A DNA stretch of 51,466 nt from IMG/VR virus record IMGVR_UViG_2703718856_000005. One strand, written 5' to 3'. Each line of letters begins with the position of its first letter. The stretch's first letter is position 1. The translations under genes were made by a program, and so were the position numbers. This document shows positions 3,309 to 46,717 of the stretch, piece by piece. Source of the stretch: a virus (lineage: Duplodnaviria > Heunggongvirae > Uroviricota > Caudoviricetes). The notes below the pieces were generated by a model. The model was not told the origin of the DNA. It did not search any database and saw nothing but the letters and a program-made list of their open reading frames with translations.

Positions 3309-3884
3309 CTACGGCAGTGCTGGCCATTCAATATCCTGTGCAGTTGACGTATCAACACGGTTCAGCAATACCCGATACTTTTTCCATGCTTCCAGCAACG
3401 AGATTTCTTCCTCCGTTGCAATTTCCAGATCTGCAGCATCCTGAAGCGGCGCAATATGCTCACTGGCTACCTGCATCAGGCTGTTTTTTGTTTCTTCCGC
3501 CTCCCGGATCCGGAACAGTTTTTCTGCTTCCGTATCCTTCACCCAGGCTGTGCCGTTCCACTTCTGATATTCCCCTCCCGGCGATAACCAGGTAACATTT
3601 TCCGGTAACGGACCGAGTTCAGAAATAAATAACGCGTCGCCGGAAGCCACGTCATAAACCGTTTTACCCCGATGATCTTCAACGAGATGCCACGATGCCT
3701 CATCACTGTTGAAAACAGCCACGAAGCCTGCCGGAATATCTGGCGGTGCAATATCGATACTGTTTGCTGGCAGACCTGTATGAGGCGGAATATATGCGTC
3801 ACCTTCACCAATAAATTCATTAGTTCCGGCCAGCAGATTATAAATTTTTATGGTCCGTGGTTGTTCACTCATTCTGAATGCCAT
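3309..3884 (-). CDS. tfa: tail fibre assembly protein Tfa
   Basis: 191 aa ORF immediately downstream of stf, start overlapping the stf stop; translation recalled as the lambda/Qin Tfa family. Confidence 0.85.
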
Positions 3885-28162: not shown

Positions 28163-28391
28163 GCAAAAAAGCTCCCGAAGGAGCCTTCATTTTCACTTTT
28201 TTAAATCCAACGACAGACGGCTGGCATTTAAGTATTGTGAAATATTATCAAATGTAATCATCATTGATTTACAAAAGATACATTTTGCCCCGAAAGGATT
28301 CATGTCAGAAACATCAAAAGATGATGTTCTATACTGGGAACCATGACAACACGGGCATCTAAAGTGAATATGGTTTGTAATATTGTCTACC

Positions 28392-28604
28392 TCAAAGCGC
28401 CACTACATGAACAGCGGCAGGACCTTTAGGTCCGTTCTCAATACCAAATTCAACTTCCTGATTCTCAGTTAATGTTTTGAAATCGTTGCTCTGAATTGCT
28501 GAGAAATGGACAAACACATCTTTGCTGCCATCTTTCGGCGTGATGAAACCAAAACCTTTTTCAGGGTTAAACCATTTCACTAAACCAGTCATTTTGTTAG
28601 ACAT
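28392..28604 (-). CDS. cspI: cold shock protein CspI-like
   Basis: 70 aa; RNP motifs KGFGFI and VFVHF. Confidence 0.9.
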
Positions 28605-28966
28605 AATTATTACCTTTTGAAGAAATTAGCCCTTGGGCAGAATGGTCCGAAAAAAAATATCAGAGAGAAAAACCAACAAGGAAATCTCAAGAGGTACAAA
28701 TAATAAAATTATAACAATGACTGCTTCAGATAAATTTGTAACAAACCAGAACACCATTAACGCATGATTAACCACCCATAGCAAGGATTACTTTTGTAAA
28801 GAAAAACACAGCAATGAAAGAATAGCTTTATTTATTAATAAAACGTGTCATTCTGATTAAGACCTTTTATCTTACCCTTAAGATTTCAGGAATTTTGGCT
28901 CATGGAAGAGTCCTTTTTATTTAAATTTTACATTCCGCGATGTAAATGTTCCGATTTAATATTACC

Positions 28967-30993: not shown

Positions 30994-31275
30994 TGAGATT
31001 GTGGTGCTTTTTGTGGGAGTCATCCACTTACGCACTTTGTTTTGCCATGCCAGCAGTTAGCTTCTGCTGTAAAACTATTCATGCAGCAAACCTGCACTTC
31101 ACCACAATGGTTAGCATACTTTTCCTGATTAATATTTTGCCAAATATGCTAGCCATTGTTTCATGTATTGGACCTCCTTACTTTTTATTAAAGAGATCCA
31201 ATATTCACTACTCTGTCCGTATCTCTACTCAGGCATCAGCCTTCTTCGTTATCGTATACAGACGAGCGATGAATT

Positions 31276-31491
31276 TTAATCAGTAATGATGACATTTGCT
31301 GCTGCAGGACCTTTAGCACCACTCTCTATAGAGAAGGTAACCTTTTGACCTTCAAATAAGGTTCGATAATTATCATTCTGAATCGCAGAAAAATGCACAA
31401 ACACATCTTTACTACCATCAACAGGAGAAATAAAGCCGAAACCTTTATCAGCGTTAAACCATTTTACTAAACCAGTCATTTTATTTGACAT
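31276..31491 (-). CDS. cspB: cold shock protein CspB-like
   Basis: 71 aa; [23 protein letters not shown] with RNP motifs. Confidence 0.9.
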
Positions 31492-31791
31492 TCTACATTC
31501 CTTAACTTGAGCCTTTCGGCATAAATGGTTTGCATAACAGAAACGACTTCGTACTTAATTGGAGAGACTCAAAGAAGGAATAAGTGAATAACACCTGAAA
31601 TGAGAACTGCTTTAGTAAACTACTTCGTATATCGTCTGTTCTTCAAACCGACGCAATCATTAACGCATAGTTGAACATATGAAGCAATGTTTATTTTAGA
31701 CATCCAGCCATCTTCAACCCCATCAAAAAACTATAGCTTTCTTCAGGAACGTGTGTATAGTGCGCCAAGTTATCAGTATTAAGGAATTTTT

Positions 31792-38424: not shown

Positions 38425-38758
38425 GAAAAATCCCCCAGAGAATTGTCTGGGGACATTTTAGAATGGTTCAAAGGGGACATTACAGCTTGGTGTTAACAAT
38501 AGCCTGCTTCTCCGTGCCTTTCGGCACGTAAGAGGCTAACCTACATGTGTCTAGCATGAAATTGGCCTCAGATTAATGTTAAGCGTCTTGCAGGACGCGT
38601 AATGTTAACTGGGGCTTTTCTCTATCTGCCGTTGGTGTCCATGCCCGAGGCAGATAGCCTCAAGCACCCGCAGTCATTCTACTTAACTAAGATTTCCCCG
38701 CAAACCGTTTTTGTCCAGCACAGTAAATATCCAACTAAACCAATGGAGTTCGCTGTAT

Positions 38759-39668: not shown

Positions 39669-39824
39669 CGTCTTTTATTTCGTGGTATGAGTAATTGCAG
39701 TAGTTAAAGAAAATTTCTTATGCTCCGTCATGAATTTCCGTAAGCGTAAACTGACCGCCGTATGTAGCCATCAGACGAGAATTGGTAACTTAGACGCCCA
39801 TCTGATATAGACGGACATCTAAGT

Positions 39825-40250
39825 ATGGAATTACAGGACTGGCGAAAAGAACCTCGTAAAAACTATTCGAATGAATTCAAACTTCGTATGGTGGAACTGG
39901 CATCACAACCTGGAGCTTGTGTTGCACAGATTGCACGTGAAAATGGCGTCAATGATAATGTTATTTTCAAATGGCTCAGGCTCTGGCAGAACGAAGGGCG
40001 TGTTTCGCGGCGTCTTCCGGTAACGACCTCTTCTGACACTGGCGTTGAATTATTACCTGTAGAAATAACGCCGGATGAGCAGAAAGAACCTGTGGCGGCC
40101 ATTGCGCCGTCTTTATCCACTTCCACTCAGACCAGAGTCAGTGCCAGTTCCTGCAAGGTGGAATTCCGTCACGGTAACATGACGCTGGAAAATCCATCGC
40201 CAGAGCTGCTCACAGTGTTGATCCGTGAACTGACCGGGAGGGGAAGATGA
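39825..40250 (+). CDS. tnpA: IS66-family accessory protein TnpA (orf1)
   Basis: 141 aa with helix-turn-helix, first ORF of the element. Confidence 0.85.
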   Translation: MELQDWRKEPRKNYSNEFKLRMVELASQPGACVAQIARENGVNDNVIFKWLRLWQNEGRVSRRLPVTTSSDTGVELLPVEITPDEQKEPVAAIAPSLSTSTQTRVSASSCKVEFRHGNMTLENPSPELLTVLIRELTGRGR

Positions 40251-40597
40251 TCTCACTCCCATCAGGTACCCGTATCTGGCTCGTTGCCGGCGTTACCGAT
40301 ATGCGTAAATCCTTCAACGGACTGGGAGAACAGGTACAACATGTGCTGAATGATAATCCCTTCTCCGGTCACCTGTTTATCTTCCGTGGCCGACGGGGTG
40401 ACACCGTCAAAATTCTTTGGGCTGATGCTGATGGTCTGTGCCTGTTCACCAAACGCCTGGAGGAAGGCCAGTTTATCTGGCCTGCGGTACGTGACGGCAA
40501 GGTATCCATTACCCGCTCGCAACTGGCAATGCTCCTCGATAAGCTGGACTGGCGTCAGCCAAAAACATCCAGCCGTAACTCACTGACAATGTTGTAA
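40247..40597 (+). CDS. tnpB: IS66-family TnpB (orf2)
   Basis: 116 aa; start overlaps the tnpA stop. Confidence 0.9.
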   Translation: MISLPSGTRIWLVAGVTDMRKSFNGLGEQVQHVLNDNPFSGHLFIFRGRRGDTVKILWADADGLCLFTKRLEEGQFIWPAVRDGKVSITRSQLAMLLDKLDWRQPKTSSRNSLTML

Positions 40598-40627
40598 AAA
40601 ACTCCTGACCGCATTATAAAAACGGTC

Positions 40628-42241
40628 ATGAGTCAGAAATACCTCATTCGCATCGCAGAGCTGGAAAGGTTGCTCTCTGAGCAGGCTGAAGCCCTCCGTC
40701 AGAAAGACCAGCAACTGAGTCTGGTTGAAGAGACGGAAGCCTTCCTGCGCTCTGCACTGACACGTGTCGAAGAAAAGATCGAAGAAGATGAACGGGAAAT
40801 AGAACATCTGCGGGCTCAGATAGAAAAACTGCGCCGGATGCTGTTCGGTACCCGTTCTGAAAAACTGCGTCGTGAAGTTGAACTGGCTGAGGCTCTGCTG
40901 AAACAACGTGAACAGGACAGCGATCGTTACAGTGGGCGGGAAGACGATCCTCAGGTTCCCCGCCAGTTGCGACAGTCGCGCCATCGTCGTCCGTTACCGG
41001 CACACCTTCCCCGTGAAATACACCGCCTGGAGCCAGAAGAAAGCTGTTGCCCGGAGTGTGGCGGTGAGCTGGATTATCTGGGGGAAGTCAGCGCTGAACA
41101 GCTGGAACTGGTGAGCAGTGCCCTGAAAGTGATCCGCACAGAACGGGTAAAAAAAGCCTGTACAAAATGTGACTGTATTGTTGAAGCACCGGCGCCGTCC
41201 CGCCCGGTAGAGCGTGGTATCGCGGGCCCCGGATTACTTGCCCGCGTGTTAACGGGAAAATACTGCGAACATCTGCCACTGTATCGTCAGAGTGAAATCT
41301 TTGCCCGCCAGGGTGTCGAACTGAGCCGGGCCTTACTCTCCAACTGGGTTGACGCGTGCTGCCAGTTAATGACACCGGTGAATGATGCCCTGTACCGTTA
41401 TGTAATGAACACCCGCAAGGTTCACACTGATGACACACCGGTAAAGGTACTGGCACCGGGTCAGAAAAAGGCGAAAACAGGGCGTATCTGGACGTATGTC
41501 CGGGATGATCGCAATGTGGGTTCGTCATCTCCTCCAGCGGTCTGGTTCGCGTACTCGCCGAACCGGCAGGGGAAACACCCGGAGCAACACCTCCGCCCCT
41601 TCCGGGGTATCCTGCAGGCGGATGCGTTCACAGGTTACGACAGGTTGTTCAGTGCAGAACGTGAAGGTGGTGCACTGACAGAAGTTGCGTGCTGGGCCCA
41701 TGCCCGGCGAAAAATCCACGATGTATACATCAGCAGCAAAAGTGCGACGGCAGAAGAAGCCCTGAAGCGAATCAGTGAACTGTACGCCATCGAGGATGAA
41801 ATACGGGGATTACCGGAGTCAGAGCGTCTTGCCGTCAGGCAGCAGCGAAGCAAAGTGTTACTGACGTCGCTGCATGAATGGATGGTGGAGAAGAATGGTA
41901 CGCTGTCGAAAAAATCCAGACTGGGCGAAGCGTTCAGCTATGTACTGAATCAGTGGGATGCCCTCTGTTATTACAGTGATGACGGTCTGGCGGAGGCGGA
42001 TAATAATGCTGCGGAAAGAGCGCTTCGTGCAGTCTGTCTCGGAAAGAAAAACTTTATGTTCTTTGGCAGCGATCACGGCGGCGAGCGTGGAGCACTGTTG
42101 TACGGGCTGATCGGCACCTGCCGTCTGAACGGTATCGATCCGGAAGCGTATCTGCGCCATATCCTGAGCGTACTGCCGGAATGGCCTTCCAACCGAGTTG
42201 ATGAACTCCTGCCATGGAACGTAGTACTCACCAATAAATAA
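40628..42241 (+). CDS. tnpC: IS66-family transposase TnpC (orf3)
   Basis: 537 aa; N-terminal coiled coil, CxxC zinc motifs, DDE-type core. Confidence 0.9.
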   Translation: MSQKYLIRIAELERLLSEQAEALRQKDQQLSLVEETEAFLRSALTRVEEKIEEDEREIEHLRAQIEKLRRMLFGTRSEKLRREVELAEALLKQREQDSDRYSGREDDPQVPRQLRQSRHRRPLPAHLPREIHRLEPEESCCPECGGELDYLGEVSAEQLELVSSALKVIRTERVKKACTKCDCIVEAPAPSRPVERGIAGPGLLARVLTGKYCEHLPLYRQSEIFARQGVELSRALLSNWVDACCQLMTPVNDALYRYVMNTRKVHTDDTPVKVLAPGQKKAKTGRIWTYVRDDRNVGSSSPPAVWFAYSPNRQGKHPEQHLRPFRGILQADAFTGYDRLFSAEREGGALTEVACWAHARRKIHDVYISSKSATAEEALKRISELYAIEDEIRGLPESERLAVRQQRSKVLLTSLHEWMVEKNGTLSKKSRLGEAFSYVLNQWDALCYYSDDGLAEADNNAAERALRAVCLGKKNFMFFGSDHGGERGALLYGLIGTCRLNGIDPEAYLRHILSVLPEWPSNRVDELLPWNVVLTNK

Positions 42242-42630
42242 GCGTCAATACGGTGCTCCGTTGACGCTTACGAATTTCCTCAGGTGTTGCGTCATCGTCC
42301 ACTTCGAATACATCCTCAAAATCTCCACCAGCTATTCCCGTTTCAATAATAATTTTGAACTTTCGCATTTCACTACCGCCCTTTCGGGCGGCCTCCTGAT
42401 GTTCTGAGGGTGCAGAAATCCATCCGGTTAAGGATTAAATTTTATTTACAGAACTGAATTTAATTATTCAGATATACGTATCTGTAGCCTTACGAATCTA
42501 CTCACTGGATGCCTCTTTCATAAAAATAATCCAGTGGGTTTTATCGTTTTTTCCCTGTTCGTTGACAGATAACAGGTTTTCTGTCTGTCAGTGCCAGAAT
42601 CTGGCTTACCGGTATTTGCGTTTCATTCCA

Positions 42631-42987
42631 TTAAAAAATCAGAACGCCGTGCGGCCTCAACACCCGAAAGGCTTCTTTAAATCTCTGTCGCGAATCATCA
42701 CGCCAGGCATCTTTATTCAGCCGTCCATATTTCTTTCCCATCCAGGCGTTATCACCAACACTCTCAAGATGCGGAGGGTCTAATACAACCATCGAAAAAG
42801 ATGCGTCTGCAAATGATAATGCACGAAAATCTGCGATAATGTCAGGGCTGATAATCAAGCGTCTCCCATTGCGTAATGTGTATCCTTCTTTTCTGATATC
42901 GCTGAATATCGCCCGTTCGTCAGACTTATCGAACCAGAACATGCGGCTGCCACAGCACATATCAAGAATGGTTGCCGGTGCACTCAC
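42631..42987 (-). CDS. DNA methyltransferase-like protein, short (118 aa), possibly truncated
   Basis: SAM-binding-like ILDMCCGSRMF and a DPPH motif resembling the DPPY catalytic motif of amino-methyltransferases. Confidence 0.45.
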   Translation of the reverse strand: MSAPATILDMCCGSRMFWFDKSDERAIFSDIRKEGYTLRNGRRLIISPDIIADFRALSFADASFSMVVLDPPHLESVGDNAWMGKKYGRLNKDAWRDDSRQRFKEAFRVLRPHGVLIF

Positions 42988-43406
42988 TGCGCCACGTCCT
43001 GAAAATTACCCTGATAGAAAGCCAGTATGCGCTGCATAACTTCGCTCTTCCGGCACTCGCGACAGATTATGTTTAGGCGACTGTCGTAGCGACGTATTTC
43101 TCCGTCAGGTGATGACCAGATAAGGTCCGGATCAACCACAGCAGGTTTCTTCACCTTTGCCCTCGAGAGTTTTTTGCGGGCGTTTTGCCAGTCCTTACGC
43201 GCCTGTTCAGAGGGGAATAACCCGTAGCCGGAGTTGTATACATCGCCACTGGCTACCAGCTCTCTGGCAAGAACGCTCATCAGATATCTAGTCGCACCTG
43301 TTTTAGCTTCCAGTTGCCGTAACGTCTCACGGCCGCTCTGGCGCACGAGTTCCACCACCTGCCATTTAATTTTTTCCCGCTCTTCTTGTGTAAAAACTTT
43401 TGCCAC
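42984..43406 (-). CDS. hypothetical protein, 140 aa, basic, possibly DNA-binding
   Basis: ORF translationally coupled to neighbours in the dicC-side operon. Confidence 0.4.
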   Translation of the reverse strand: MAKVFTQEEREKIKWQVVELVRQSGRETLRQLEAKTGATRYLMSVLARELVASGDVYNSGYGLFPSEQARKDWQNARKKLSRAKVKKPAVVDPDLIWSSPDGEIRRYDSRLNIICRECRKSEVMQRILAFYQGNFQDVAQ

Positions 43407-43446: not shown

Positions 43447-44466
43447 TTATCCTCTGAAACCAGGCGGAATTTCTGTATCCGGTTCAGAAATATGATTAAC
43501 ACAACGCTGTACAGGTGAACGTCCCAGGCGGATGACCAGTTCGTCCCATTTTTCGCGGAGCTTTGACGGGCTCATGATGTTTTTTACCCAGAATGGATCT
43601 CGCTGAACCCGACCAAACATTTCGCAAATTTGTCTGTGGCTTCTGCCATCCAGCATCCGCATTGTGCGCACGTCATTGGCCCAGGCAGTCCAGTTAGGCT
43701 CTTTTGGTCGCATGATCTCGCCATCATCACTGGCTGCCTGTTCGTAGAGACCCACGATCCGCCCCCAGATCCACTGCGCACACGCCAAATCCTCCCTGCT
43801 ACCCCACTGGCGTTTTTTCGCACTAAACACAACCGCGTCGGAGTTCCGGGTTAAAAAATCCTGTTCAGTCGTCTGCGGGTCCGGTTGCGAAGCTTCCGGA
43901 CGAAAAGTGTTTTTATTCTCTGTAGTAATCTCTGTTGTATTCTCTGTAAGATCATCAGGCCATTTTGACCCGATGACATTGGGTCGTTTTGAACCAATGG
44001 AGCGTTTCATTTTGACCTCTTCCATCGTGTCATTTTGACCTGATGGAGCGGCGCATTTTGAACCGATGGATTCGCTCAATTTGCCACCATCTAAAAGCTC
44101 GCTCCCATAGTTGATCGTGTAGAAATTGGTCATATCGCGCTTTGATTTATTGAGCTTTTCACAACGCAAAAGCCCCAGCGTTTTCAGACTTGCAAACGCG
44201 CGCTTTAACGTTGACTCTGACCAGAATGGGAACTGTTCCAGCCATTGTTCCGTTGTGTTATAAATCCAGCGAACACCATCACATTCCATGCCGGAGTTGG
44301 TATCTCTCAACCAGTAGTGCAGTTGTTGCAAAACAATGGCTTCGTTTAAGCCAATTTTCATTGCCAGCTGCGTGTTTATAACCAGTGGGCGTTCAGCAAA
44401 AAGAAGGCTCATAATTCCATCCAGCTTTTTGTTGGTATTGCTGTCGATACGCAAGTTTGAAAGCAA
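43447..44466 (-). CDS. phage replication initiator / replisome-organiser-type protein, iterons within the gene (alternative start at 44412)
   Basis: N-terminal winged-helix-like segment MSLLFAERPLVINTQLAMKIGLNEAIVLQQLHYWL; repeated IGSK peptide motif encoded by the DNA iterons. Confidence 0.75.
   Translation of the reverse strand: MLSNLRIDSNTNKKLDGIMSLLFAERPLVINTQLAMKIGLNEAIVLQQLHYWLRDTNSGMECDGVRWIYNTTEQWLEQFPFWSESTLKRAFASLKTLGLLRCEKLNKSKRDMTNFYTINYGSELLDGGKLSESIGSKCAAPSGQNDTMEEVKMKRSIGSKRPNVIGSKWPDDLTENTTEITTENKNTFRPEASQPDPQTTEQDFLTRNSDAVVFSAKKRQWGSREDLACAQWIWGRIVGLYEQAASDDGEIMRPKEPNWTAWANDVRTMRMLDGRSHRQICEMFGRVQRDPFWVKNIMSPSKLREKWDELVIRLGRSPVQRCVNHISEPDTEIPPGFRG
43961..44092. repeat. origin-like iteron array: about six copies of CATTTTGACC-type repeats at roughly 23 bp spacing, with three TCTCTGT repeats just beside it (43918..43950)
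   Basis: Repeats read directly at about 43961, 43987, 44009, 44031, 44054 and 44078. Confidence 0.7.
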
Positions 44467-44914
44467 TTGCTTTTTCTATAAGTTCGTCAGTTTCACGATC
44501 CACTACGGCAGGATCAGCAAAAAGCAGTCCGGACTCCACCACATCGCCATATTCTTTGTTTAACCCGGCGATCATGCACGTGATGCTTTTTCCGTCAGTA
44601 ATTTCACGATACAACCTGAAATCATTAATCCGGATAGCCTCCATAATTGCAGGCACTAGCGCCGTGAACTTTTCACGCTTATCCCTGGTGTCGATAGCCT
44701 TCCAGCGTTCAAATATCTTCACTCGATTAACGCCAAGCGCTCGCTGATCAATCGCGCCACCTTCATATGTGACACGCTGAACATCGATGTTCGGGCGCTC
44801 TTTCAAAGCCCAGAATGCTTCAGTGATTAATATCGTCGCCTGCTCCTGTGTCATTCCTGGTCGACATATCCAGGCATCCAGAGCCTCACGAGCCTGTTCA
44901 GGAGTGATTTTCAT
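44393..44914 (-). CDS. hypothetical protein, 173 aa, first gene after dicC
   Basis: ORF overlapping the dicC stop and the initiator start; family not recognised. Confidence 0.45.
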   Translation of the reverse strand: MKITPEQAREALDAWICRPGMTQEQATILITEAFWALKERPNIDVQRVTYEGGAIDQRALGVNRVKIFERWKAIDTRDKREKFTALVPAIMEAIRINDFRLYREITDGKSITCMIAGLNKEYGDVVESGLLFADPAVVDRETDELIEKAIAFKLAYRQQYQQKAGWNYEPSFC

Positions 44915-45128
44915 TGTTCAACCGCCCCGCCCGCTTCGTCTTACGATATTCATCATAAACTTTGGGATCATACTGAAGCTCCCCGCCAGATGCCTCCTGT
45001 AGACGCATCGCGCGACCTTCGGGAACTAAATCCCCTTTCCAGCTATAAAGCGAAGCCAAACGAATACCTGCTGCTTGTGCAAGTTTTGTTTTTGAACCGA
45101 AATACAAAAGAGCGTCAGTTTTAAGCAT
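44898..45128 (-). CDS. dicC: DicC, Cro-like regulator
   Basis: 76 aa, recalled as DicC; divergent from dicA. Confidence 0.85.
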   Translation of the reverse strand: MLKTDALLYFGSKTKLAQAAGIRLASLYSWKGDLVPEGRAMRLQEASGGELQYDPKVYDEYRKTKRAGRLNNENHS

Positions 45129-46659: not shown

Positions 46660-46717
46660 TTTCTGGTGACGTTTGGCGGTATCAGTTTTACTCCGTGACT
46701 GCTCTGCCGCCCTTTTT
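46660..46717 (+). ncRNA. dicF: DicF small RNA (ftsZ-targeting, Hfq-dependent), with its intrinsic terminator
   Basis: TTTCTGGTGACGTTTGGCGGTATCAGTTTTACTCCGTGACTGCTCTGCCGCCCTTTTT matches the recalled DicF sequence; sits between ydfC and dicB. Confidence 0.7.

Follow-up and report, generated by a model that had tools for sequence, protein, structure and literature searches.

Two short, overlapping open reading frames (ORFs) in phage DNA can represent a functional pair, or a gene in decay next to an unrelated neighbor, and it is this question that the locus described here raises. It lies in a 51,466-nt stretch of caudoviricete DNA (IMG/VR record IMGVR_UViG_2703718856_000005), the whole of which is referred to as the window. 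A 118-aa ORF with methyltransferase motifs follows an ORF for a basic protein of 140 aa (pI 9.7, 26 Lys plus Arg versus 18 Asp plus Glu residues). The initial annotation had noted the basic character of the larger protein, had assigned it to no family, and had proposed either a truncated, orphan Dam-like methylase or a distinct module of two genes in the replication operon. Both ORFs exist as described, and the smaller one encodes a SAM-binding-like motif I (ILDMCCGS, residues 7–14) and a motif IV of the DPPH type (residues 70–73). Its GTG start and the TGA that terminates the 140-aa ORF share 4 bp, in the sequence GTGA. The explanation that we consider very probable is that the methyltransferase gene is dead in the distal early-right operon of a Qin-type prophage, that the Ren homologue next to it is intact, and that the two do not form a module.

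The early-right operon of a Qin-type prophage

The PGAP annotation of the matching locus in Escherichia coli ATCC 8739 together with an Rfam search places both ORFs in a Qin-type cryptic lambdoid prophage of E. coli, for which dicA, dicC, the DicF RNA, dicB, relBE and hokD/sok serve as markers. The window is identified as such by its Rfam RNAs (Table 1) in combination with dicA, dicC, relBE and hokD. From position 42272 rightwards it matches ATCC 8739 with 100% identity, and several other complete genomes carry the region in identical form. The genes of the operon are arranged in the order dicC, cII/YdaT-like gene, O-like replication initiator gene, 140-aa ORF, 118-aa ORF and a decayed DUF7167 gene. 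The placement in a replication operon, as originally proposed, is borne out by the O-like gene that precedes both ORFs. The remnant of the DUF7167 gene, which was already decayed, is interrupted by ISEc23, and ATCC 8739 has the empty site.

Table 1. Features of the window discussed in the text and their positions
Feature	Position	Strand	Remarks
IS009	3343–3541	−	Rfam
cspA-type thermoregulator leader	28365–28750	−	Rfam
cspA-type thermoregulator leader	31260–31652	−	Rfam
sok antitoxin RNA	38498–38669	−	Rfam
ISEc23 (IS66 family)	39740–42271		8-bp target-site duplication; carries tnpA, tnpB and tnpC
tnpB of ISEc23	40247–40597
tnpC of ISEc23	40628–42241
Decayed DUF7167 gene, remnant ORF	42228–42368	−	Downstream of the 118-aa ORF
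Class I SAM methyltransferase pseudogene, full extent	42498–42987	−	Ancestral reading 162 aa; tblastn and DNA alignment
G run (CCC on the plus strand) with 1-bp insertion	42553–42555	−	DNA alignment column 436, GGG versus GG
Premature TAA stop, codon 119	42631–42633	−	DNA alignment column 358, T versus A
118-aa ORF, methyltransferase N-terminal fragment	42631–42987	−	GTG start; strand 1 to mid-strand 5; PHROG 954
DUF977/Ren-family protein, 140 aa	42984–43406	−	GTG start; intact; Pfam PF06163 and PHROG 142
O-like replication initiator	43447–44466	−	PHROG 391 'replication initiation O-like', E 1.3e-91
cII/YdaT-like gene	44393–44914	−
dicC (cro-like) and cII-like/YdaT-family gene	44393–45128	−	First genes of the operon
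Promoter-like site	45189–45161	−	Ahead of dicC, operon start
DicF sRNA	46661–46712	+	Rfam

Between the O-like initiator and the Ren-like gene there is no gene for a helicase loader of the lambda P or DnaC type. Profile matches of the O-like protein include DnaD-like helicase-loader PHROGs for the C-terminal half and, weakly, the C-terminus of DnaT for the last 20 residues (NCBIfam, E 0.006). In light of these three observations, the O-like protein may combine the roles of initiator and loader.

A methyltransferase gene with two lesions

A search of 5.8 billion proteins retrieved 1630 relatives of the 118-aa product that are typically 157–167 aa long and bear the name 'class I SAM-dependent methyltransferase'. 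The fragment matches PHROG 954 with an E value of 6.7e-58 over profile positions 52–165 of 229, and the intact homologue P0017 does so with an E value of 7.1e-88 over positions 50–204. Intact members run past the last residue of the window product and end with the consensus GVLIFKWNETQIPVSQILALTDRKPVIGQRTGKxDKTHWIIFMKE, in which some positions vary. In the window, the same frame reads GVLIF-stop-WNETQIPVSQILALTDRKPVICQRTGK and, followed further, GVLIF-stop-WNETQIPVSQILALTDRKPVICQRTGKKR-stop, and translation in three frames places GKNDKTHWIIFMKEASSE-stop in the neighboring frame. When intact P0017 was used as the query for tblastn, its residues 1–146 aligned with positions 42987–42550 in a single frame, straight through the stop, and residues 145–161 aligned with positions 42554–42504 in the next frame.

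Alignment with the DNA of the intact gene from E. coli O111:H8 resolves two lesions. An exchange of A to T has turned the codon AAA for Lys119, a residue present in at least 90% of 58 intact homologues and encoded by AAA in the O111 gene, into TAA. The second lesion is located 78 nt beyond this stop and consists of one extra G that shifts the frame of the C-terminal remnant. Removal of both lesions restores a reading of 162 aa. Sequencing errors are excluded as a cause, because the lesions are present in many independent complete assemblies including that of ATCC 8739. Annotation pipelines disagree on the status of the gene: in strain GPEC1446, where the locus is 99.2% identical, PGAP flags it as a pseudogene ('frameshifted; internal stop'), whereas in ATCC 8739, the DNA of which is that of the window, a CDS for a protein of 118 aa (WP_001310834.1) is called instead. 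The alignments identify the 118-aa ORF as a pseudogene fragment, i.e., a plain C-terminal truncation caused by a nonsense mutation and accompanied by a frameshift lesion further downstream. Comparison with full-length methylases had been named at the outset as a suitable check, with a simple C-terminal truncation of a known methylase as the refuting outcome, and such a truncation, with a stop and a 1-bp insertion, is what it revealed.

Over residues 1–118, the window product is 82%–87% identical to WP_000145671.1 (157 aa, E. coli O111) and to P0010, P0013 and P0017 (161–162 aa). The start and the motifs ILDMCCGS and DPPH are common to all of them and the C-terminal remnant is still recognizable in the DNA, whereas TAA at codon 119, the 1-bp insertion and eight substitutions at conserved sites set the window allele apart. 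These substitutions (H36Y, C39R, D40N, P58S, F69L, R76S, T94A and G102R) affect alignment columns that are at least 90% conserved; by the same measure intact members have 1.1 substitutions on average and four at most (n = 58). Synonymous sites were saturated against every comparator but one, the O111 gene, for which dN/dS analysis yielded an omega of 0.23, a value that by itself gives no sign of relaxed selection.

The consequences for the protein were assessed with an AlphaFold2 model of intact P0017 that was calculated from a 59-sequence alignment (pLDDT 71, pTM 0.74). In this model, residues 110–120, 138–143 and 151–156 form strands and residues 127–131 form a helix, and a protein that ends at residue 118 would therefore break off before strand 5 is complete and would lack a helix as well as strands 6 and 7. 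Intact relatives have a complete seven-stranded sheet, which the window product does not. The 44 missing residues rank among the most conserved of the family and include the segments KWNETQIP and QRTGK-DKTHW. As strands 6 and 7 and these conserved segments are missing, it is very unlikely that the 118-aa product folds or methylates anything.

The Ren-like neighbor and the gene neighborhood

Contrary to the initial annotation, the 140-aa protein does belong to a recognizable family. It matches Pfam DUF977 (PF06163) with an E value of 5e-29 and 101.5 bits (gathering cut-off 22.1), with residues 1–136 aligned to positions 1–134 of the 134-position profile, and it matches PHROG 142 ('Ren-like exclusion protein') with an E value of 1.6e-47. 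Lambda Ren (96 aa, NP_040633.1) is also a member of PHROG 142 (E 1.6e-41), and both proteins have an N-terminal helix-turn-helix and a common C-terminal motif, (I/F)(C/K)ECR(K/Q)S..M(Q/K)R(I/V)LA.Y, that reads CRECRKSEVMQRILAFY in the 140-aa protein. In pairwise comparison (E 2e-6), 10 of 20 residues are identical (NIICRECRKSEVMQRILAFY versus NLVFKECRQSAAMKRVLAVY). The position of the gene is also that of lambda, where ren comes last in the cro-cII-O-(P)-ren operon. On the other hand, the 140-aa protein has an extra basic linker and about 30 further residues compared with lambda Ren, and lambda Ren does not match Pfam DUF977. NCBIfam returned nothing specific for either the 140-aa or the 118-aa protein.

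Ren lets lambda escape Rex exclusion. To our knowledge, escape from RexAB exclusion is established for lambda ren only, and we know of no Rex-related phenotype for DUF977 proteins. LygF, from the Sdf region of Salmonella Enteritidis, is a locus name only. An AlphaFold2 model of the 140-aa protein reaches pLDDT values above 90 for residues 11–70, which form a winged helix, while the C-terminal 45 residues are poorly modelled. The best fold matches of residues 11–70 are weak (E ≥ 0.02) and comprise DNA-binding domains of the MarR, GntR, ArsR and AspA types. The model agrees with a profile analysis from 2009 that assigned a winged helix to DUF977 (PMC2686095), the only mention of DUF977 that we found in the literature; lambda ren itself has been treated in a published paper as the gene that ends the pR operon. 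The 140-aa protein is an intact, ordinary relative of lambda Ren encoded by a separate accessory gene.

If the two genes formed a unit, they should be found together, and we examined their genetic environment accordingly. At 80 loci, one per species, the methyltransferase gene is flanked upstream and downstream by dozens of unrelated singleton clusters, and a clear DUF977 gene is located upstream at a single locus (Shigella flexneri), where the copy is fragmented. The region is matched by 4064 of 5426 complete E. coli genomes; most have the DUF977 part only, and 484 of the 4064 hold both genes. In the O111 strain, the intact methyltransferase gene (O111:H8 copy, locus L006, 2574–3047) follows yfdR and a YfdS-like gene in a CPS-53-like prophage, and the O157 copy resides in the same setting. 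An overlap of four bases with whichever gene is located upstream is the rule among methyltransferase loci, so that the overlap in the window reflects operon packing and is no sign of a functional pair. DUF977 and the methyltransferase are not a conserved two-gene module, and the distinct module originally envisaged is not borne out.

The copy from O157:H7 strain ECP17-46 (locus L004, 4074–4547) contains an independent stop, TGG to TAG. With the O111:H8 copy being intact, this suggests that the methyltransferase gene has been lost repeatedly in E. coli prophages. In Escherichia phage HannyBb (locus L002, 2934–3140), the DUF977/Ren homologue is followed by a gene for a 68-aa product annotated as 'DNA methyltransferase', and this ORF seems to be a further fragment from the same family at the equivalent place. 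YfdM ('putative methyltransferase') and YfdT from the CPS-53 prophage of E. coli K-12 were considered as relatives and rejected (BLASTP E values of 8.9 and 42).

The intact methyltransferase family and alternative readings

The intact PHROG 954 family is annotated as 'DNA methyltransferase' and comprises 1275 clusters at 50% identity (E 1e-10 or better). Homologues are present in 256 phage records from Streptococcus, Vibrio, Acinetobacter, Porphyromonas, Listeria, Gordonia, Enterococcus and Staphylococcus (e.g., Listeria phage A118 ORF50, L089 2501–2965, and Streptococcus phage T12, L090 2486–2971), most of them with approximately 45%–60% identity to the E. coli protein. Members of about 155 aa from enterobacterial prophages are 45%–55% identical to those from phages of Firmicutes, Actinobacteria and Bacteroidetes, and the conservation of the family, for which Pfam has no entry of its own, is unusually strong for an accessory phage gene. 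A118 ORF50 (NP_463515.1, 154 aa) aligns with 96% of the intact E. coli homologue at 53% identity and follows its upstream neighbor directly with a 4-bp overlap. It differs from the window gene in that it is intact, stems from a Firmicute phage and has a gene for a DnaD-like replication/loader protein and not for DUF977 upstream. The note in its record, an annotation only, reads 'methylates cytosine residues in DNA'. Some longer homologues have N-terminal extensions of about 50–150 residues, in which a profile scan detected no consistent DNA-binding or target-recognition domain; they seem to be artefacts of gene calling or fusions with unrelated sequences.

In the alignment of 59 sequences, the family exhibits the hallmarks of a class I fold, namely motif I and an invariant D30 at the end of strand 2, and those of an amino-methyltransferase motif IV, in which D70, P72 and H73 show no variation and the conservation of P71 reaches at least 90%. 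A catalytic motif of the type (D/N/S)PP(Y/F/H) is shared with Dam-type and other orphan phage methyltransferases (T4/P1 Dam, MethyltransfD12, N6_N4_Mtase), which are likewise phage-borne without a cognate nuclease nearby. For the window product and three intact homologues, Pfam searches with E values up to 1 yielded only marginal matches to Methyltransf_11 and Methyltransf_25 and none to the Dam/MethyltransfD12 profiles; N6_N4_Mtase (PF01555) gave one sub-threshold match for a distant relative (E 0.003, 18 bits versus a cut-off of 26.7). Dam enzymes have about 260–300 aa. In contrast to them, members of the family measure about 160 aa when intact and have no target-recognition domain, and motif I precedes motif IV, which is not the order of the beta class (IV, target-recognition domain, I). 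Of the 'truncated orphan Dam-like methylase' that had been proposed, the truncated orphan stands, as the fragment belongs to a class I family of 157–167 aa, while the label Dam-like is not supported. A comparison with solved structures, by single sequence or family profile, gave no significant match (best 1ve3, E 0.019), and we found neither a functional study of DUF977 or of the methyltransferase family nor an experimental demonstration of methyl transfer in the literature.

Could the 118-aa protein nevertheless act as a minimal methyltransferase or SAM-binding protein that contributes catalysis, with DUF977 providing recognition of DNA? Such a division of labor would fit the 4-bp overlap, a methyltransferase family without a target-recognition domain of its own, the confidently modelled winged helix of DUF977 and a few other loci where small HTH-like proteins with very weak similarity to DUF977 (E ~1e-4) are encoded upstream. 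We regard it as highly improbable, however, as the stop is derived by mutation and followed by a recognizable, frameshifted C-terminal remnant, highly conserved residues are missing, key residues in the retained part are mutated, DUF977 is so seldom the partner, and intact copies follow unrelated genes. The fragment might also have retained some function, perhaps in SAM binding or regulation as a partner of the Ren-like winged-helix protein. Its persistence in unchanged form in hundreds of E. coli genomes would then be accounted for; this too strikes us as very improbable. A full-length enzyme might still be produced by programmed recoding, with readthrough at codon 119 and, at the G3A6 run, a frameshift of +1 or slippage during transcription; slippage is conceivable, as the second lesion is located in a homopolymeric GGGAAAAAA stretch. 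The next base after the stop is, however, a T, and no other context terminates translation in E. coli as efficiently as UAAU. Recoding was rejected because of this context and the two separate, independent events it requires. In addition, intact relatives have neither stop nor insertion, which argues for a derived defect and not a conserved signal, and conserved residues are decaying as well, so that we attach next to no probability to it.

A different question is which substrate the intact family, and thus the ancestor of the window gene, acts upon. It might be an RNA or protein amino-methyltransferase of the Trm11, RsmD or PrmC-like kind that serves host takeover, and not a DNA methyltransferase. 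Foldseek searches with the intact model retrieved class I methyltransferases with the archaeal tRNA m2G10 methyltransferase Trm11 at the top, a target-recognition domain is missing, and identities of 45%–55% across phages of four bacterial phyla suggest a universally conserved substrate. The same Foldseek list, however, contains M.BceJIV, M.TaqI and an N4-cytosine methyltransferase with scores similar to that of Trm11, and PHROG, GenBank and the A118 record all state DNA methyltransferase, although these are annotations and not tests. On balance, we consider an RNA or protein substrate unlikely. The intact family is best described as a minimal orphan amino-methyltransferase without a recognizable target-recognition domain that would be expressed with early and replication genes and that probably acts on phage DNA; its members could prove to methylate DNA without specificity or to act on RNA.

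For the window itself, we return to a dead methyltransferase gene beside an intact Ren homologue. The region is the distal part of an early-right (pR-type) operon in which an accessory orphan methyltransferase gene comes last after that for the Ren homologue. The nonsense mutation AAA to TAA cuts the product to 118 of 162 ancestral residues, so that the Rossmann fold breaks off halfway through strand 5, and the 1-bp insertion 78 nt further on disrupts the remaining frame. Where the gene is intact, prophage induction most likely leads to synthesis of the enzyme, which most likely methylates the exocyclic amino group of N6-adenine or N4-cytosine in phage DNA, thereby blunting host restriction, a role that we infer from its DPPH motif, the way the family is annotated and the position of the gene. 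The Ren-like protein is a winged-helix accessory protein separate from the methyltransferase.

The locus is an ordinary one and has already been annotated in public genomes, once as a pseudogene. Biologically, it is of little consequence, as it adds to the decayed accessory genes of cryptic prophages a further example, located beside a member of the DUF977/Ren family, which is known but obscure in function. For annotation it matters that the name 'class I SAM-dependent methyltransferase' continues to be passed on with the 118-aa entry WP_001310834.1, the gene for which is a pseudogene disrupted by a nonsense mutation and a frameshift. Where methylomes are determined for strains like ATCC 8739, no activity is to be expected from the 118-aa allele. 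The intact PHROG 954 family, a small protein widespread in temperate phages, is a reasonable target for methylome analysis, at loci other than that of the window.
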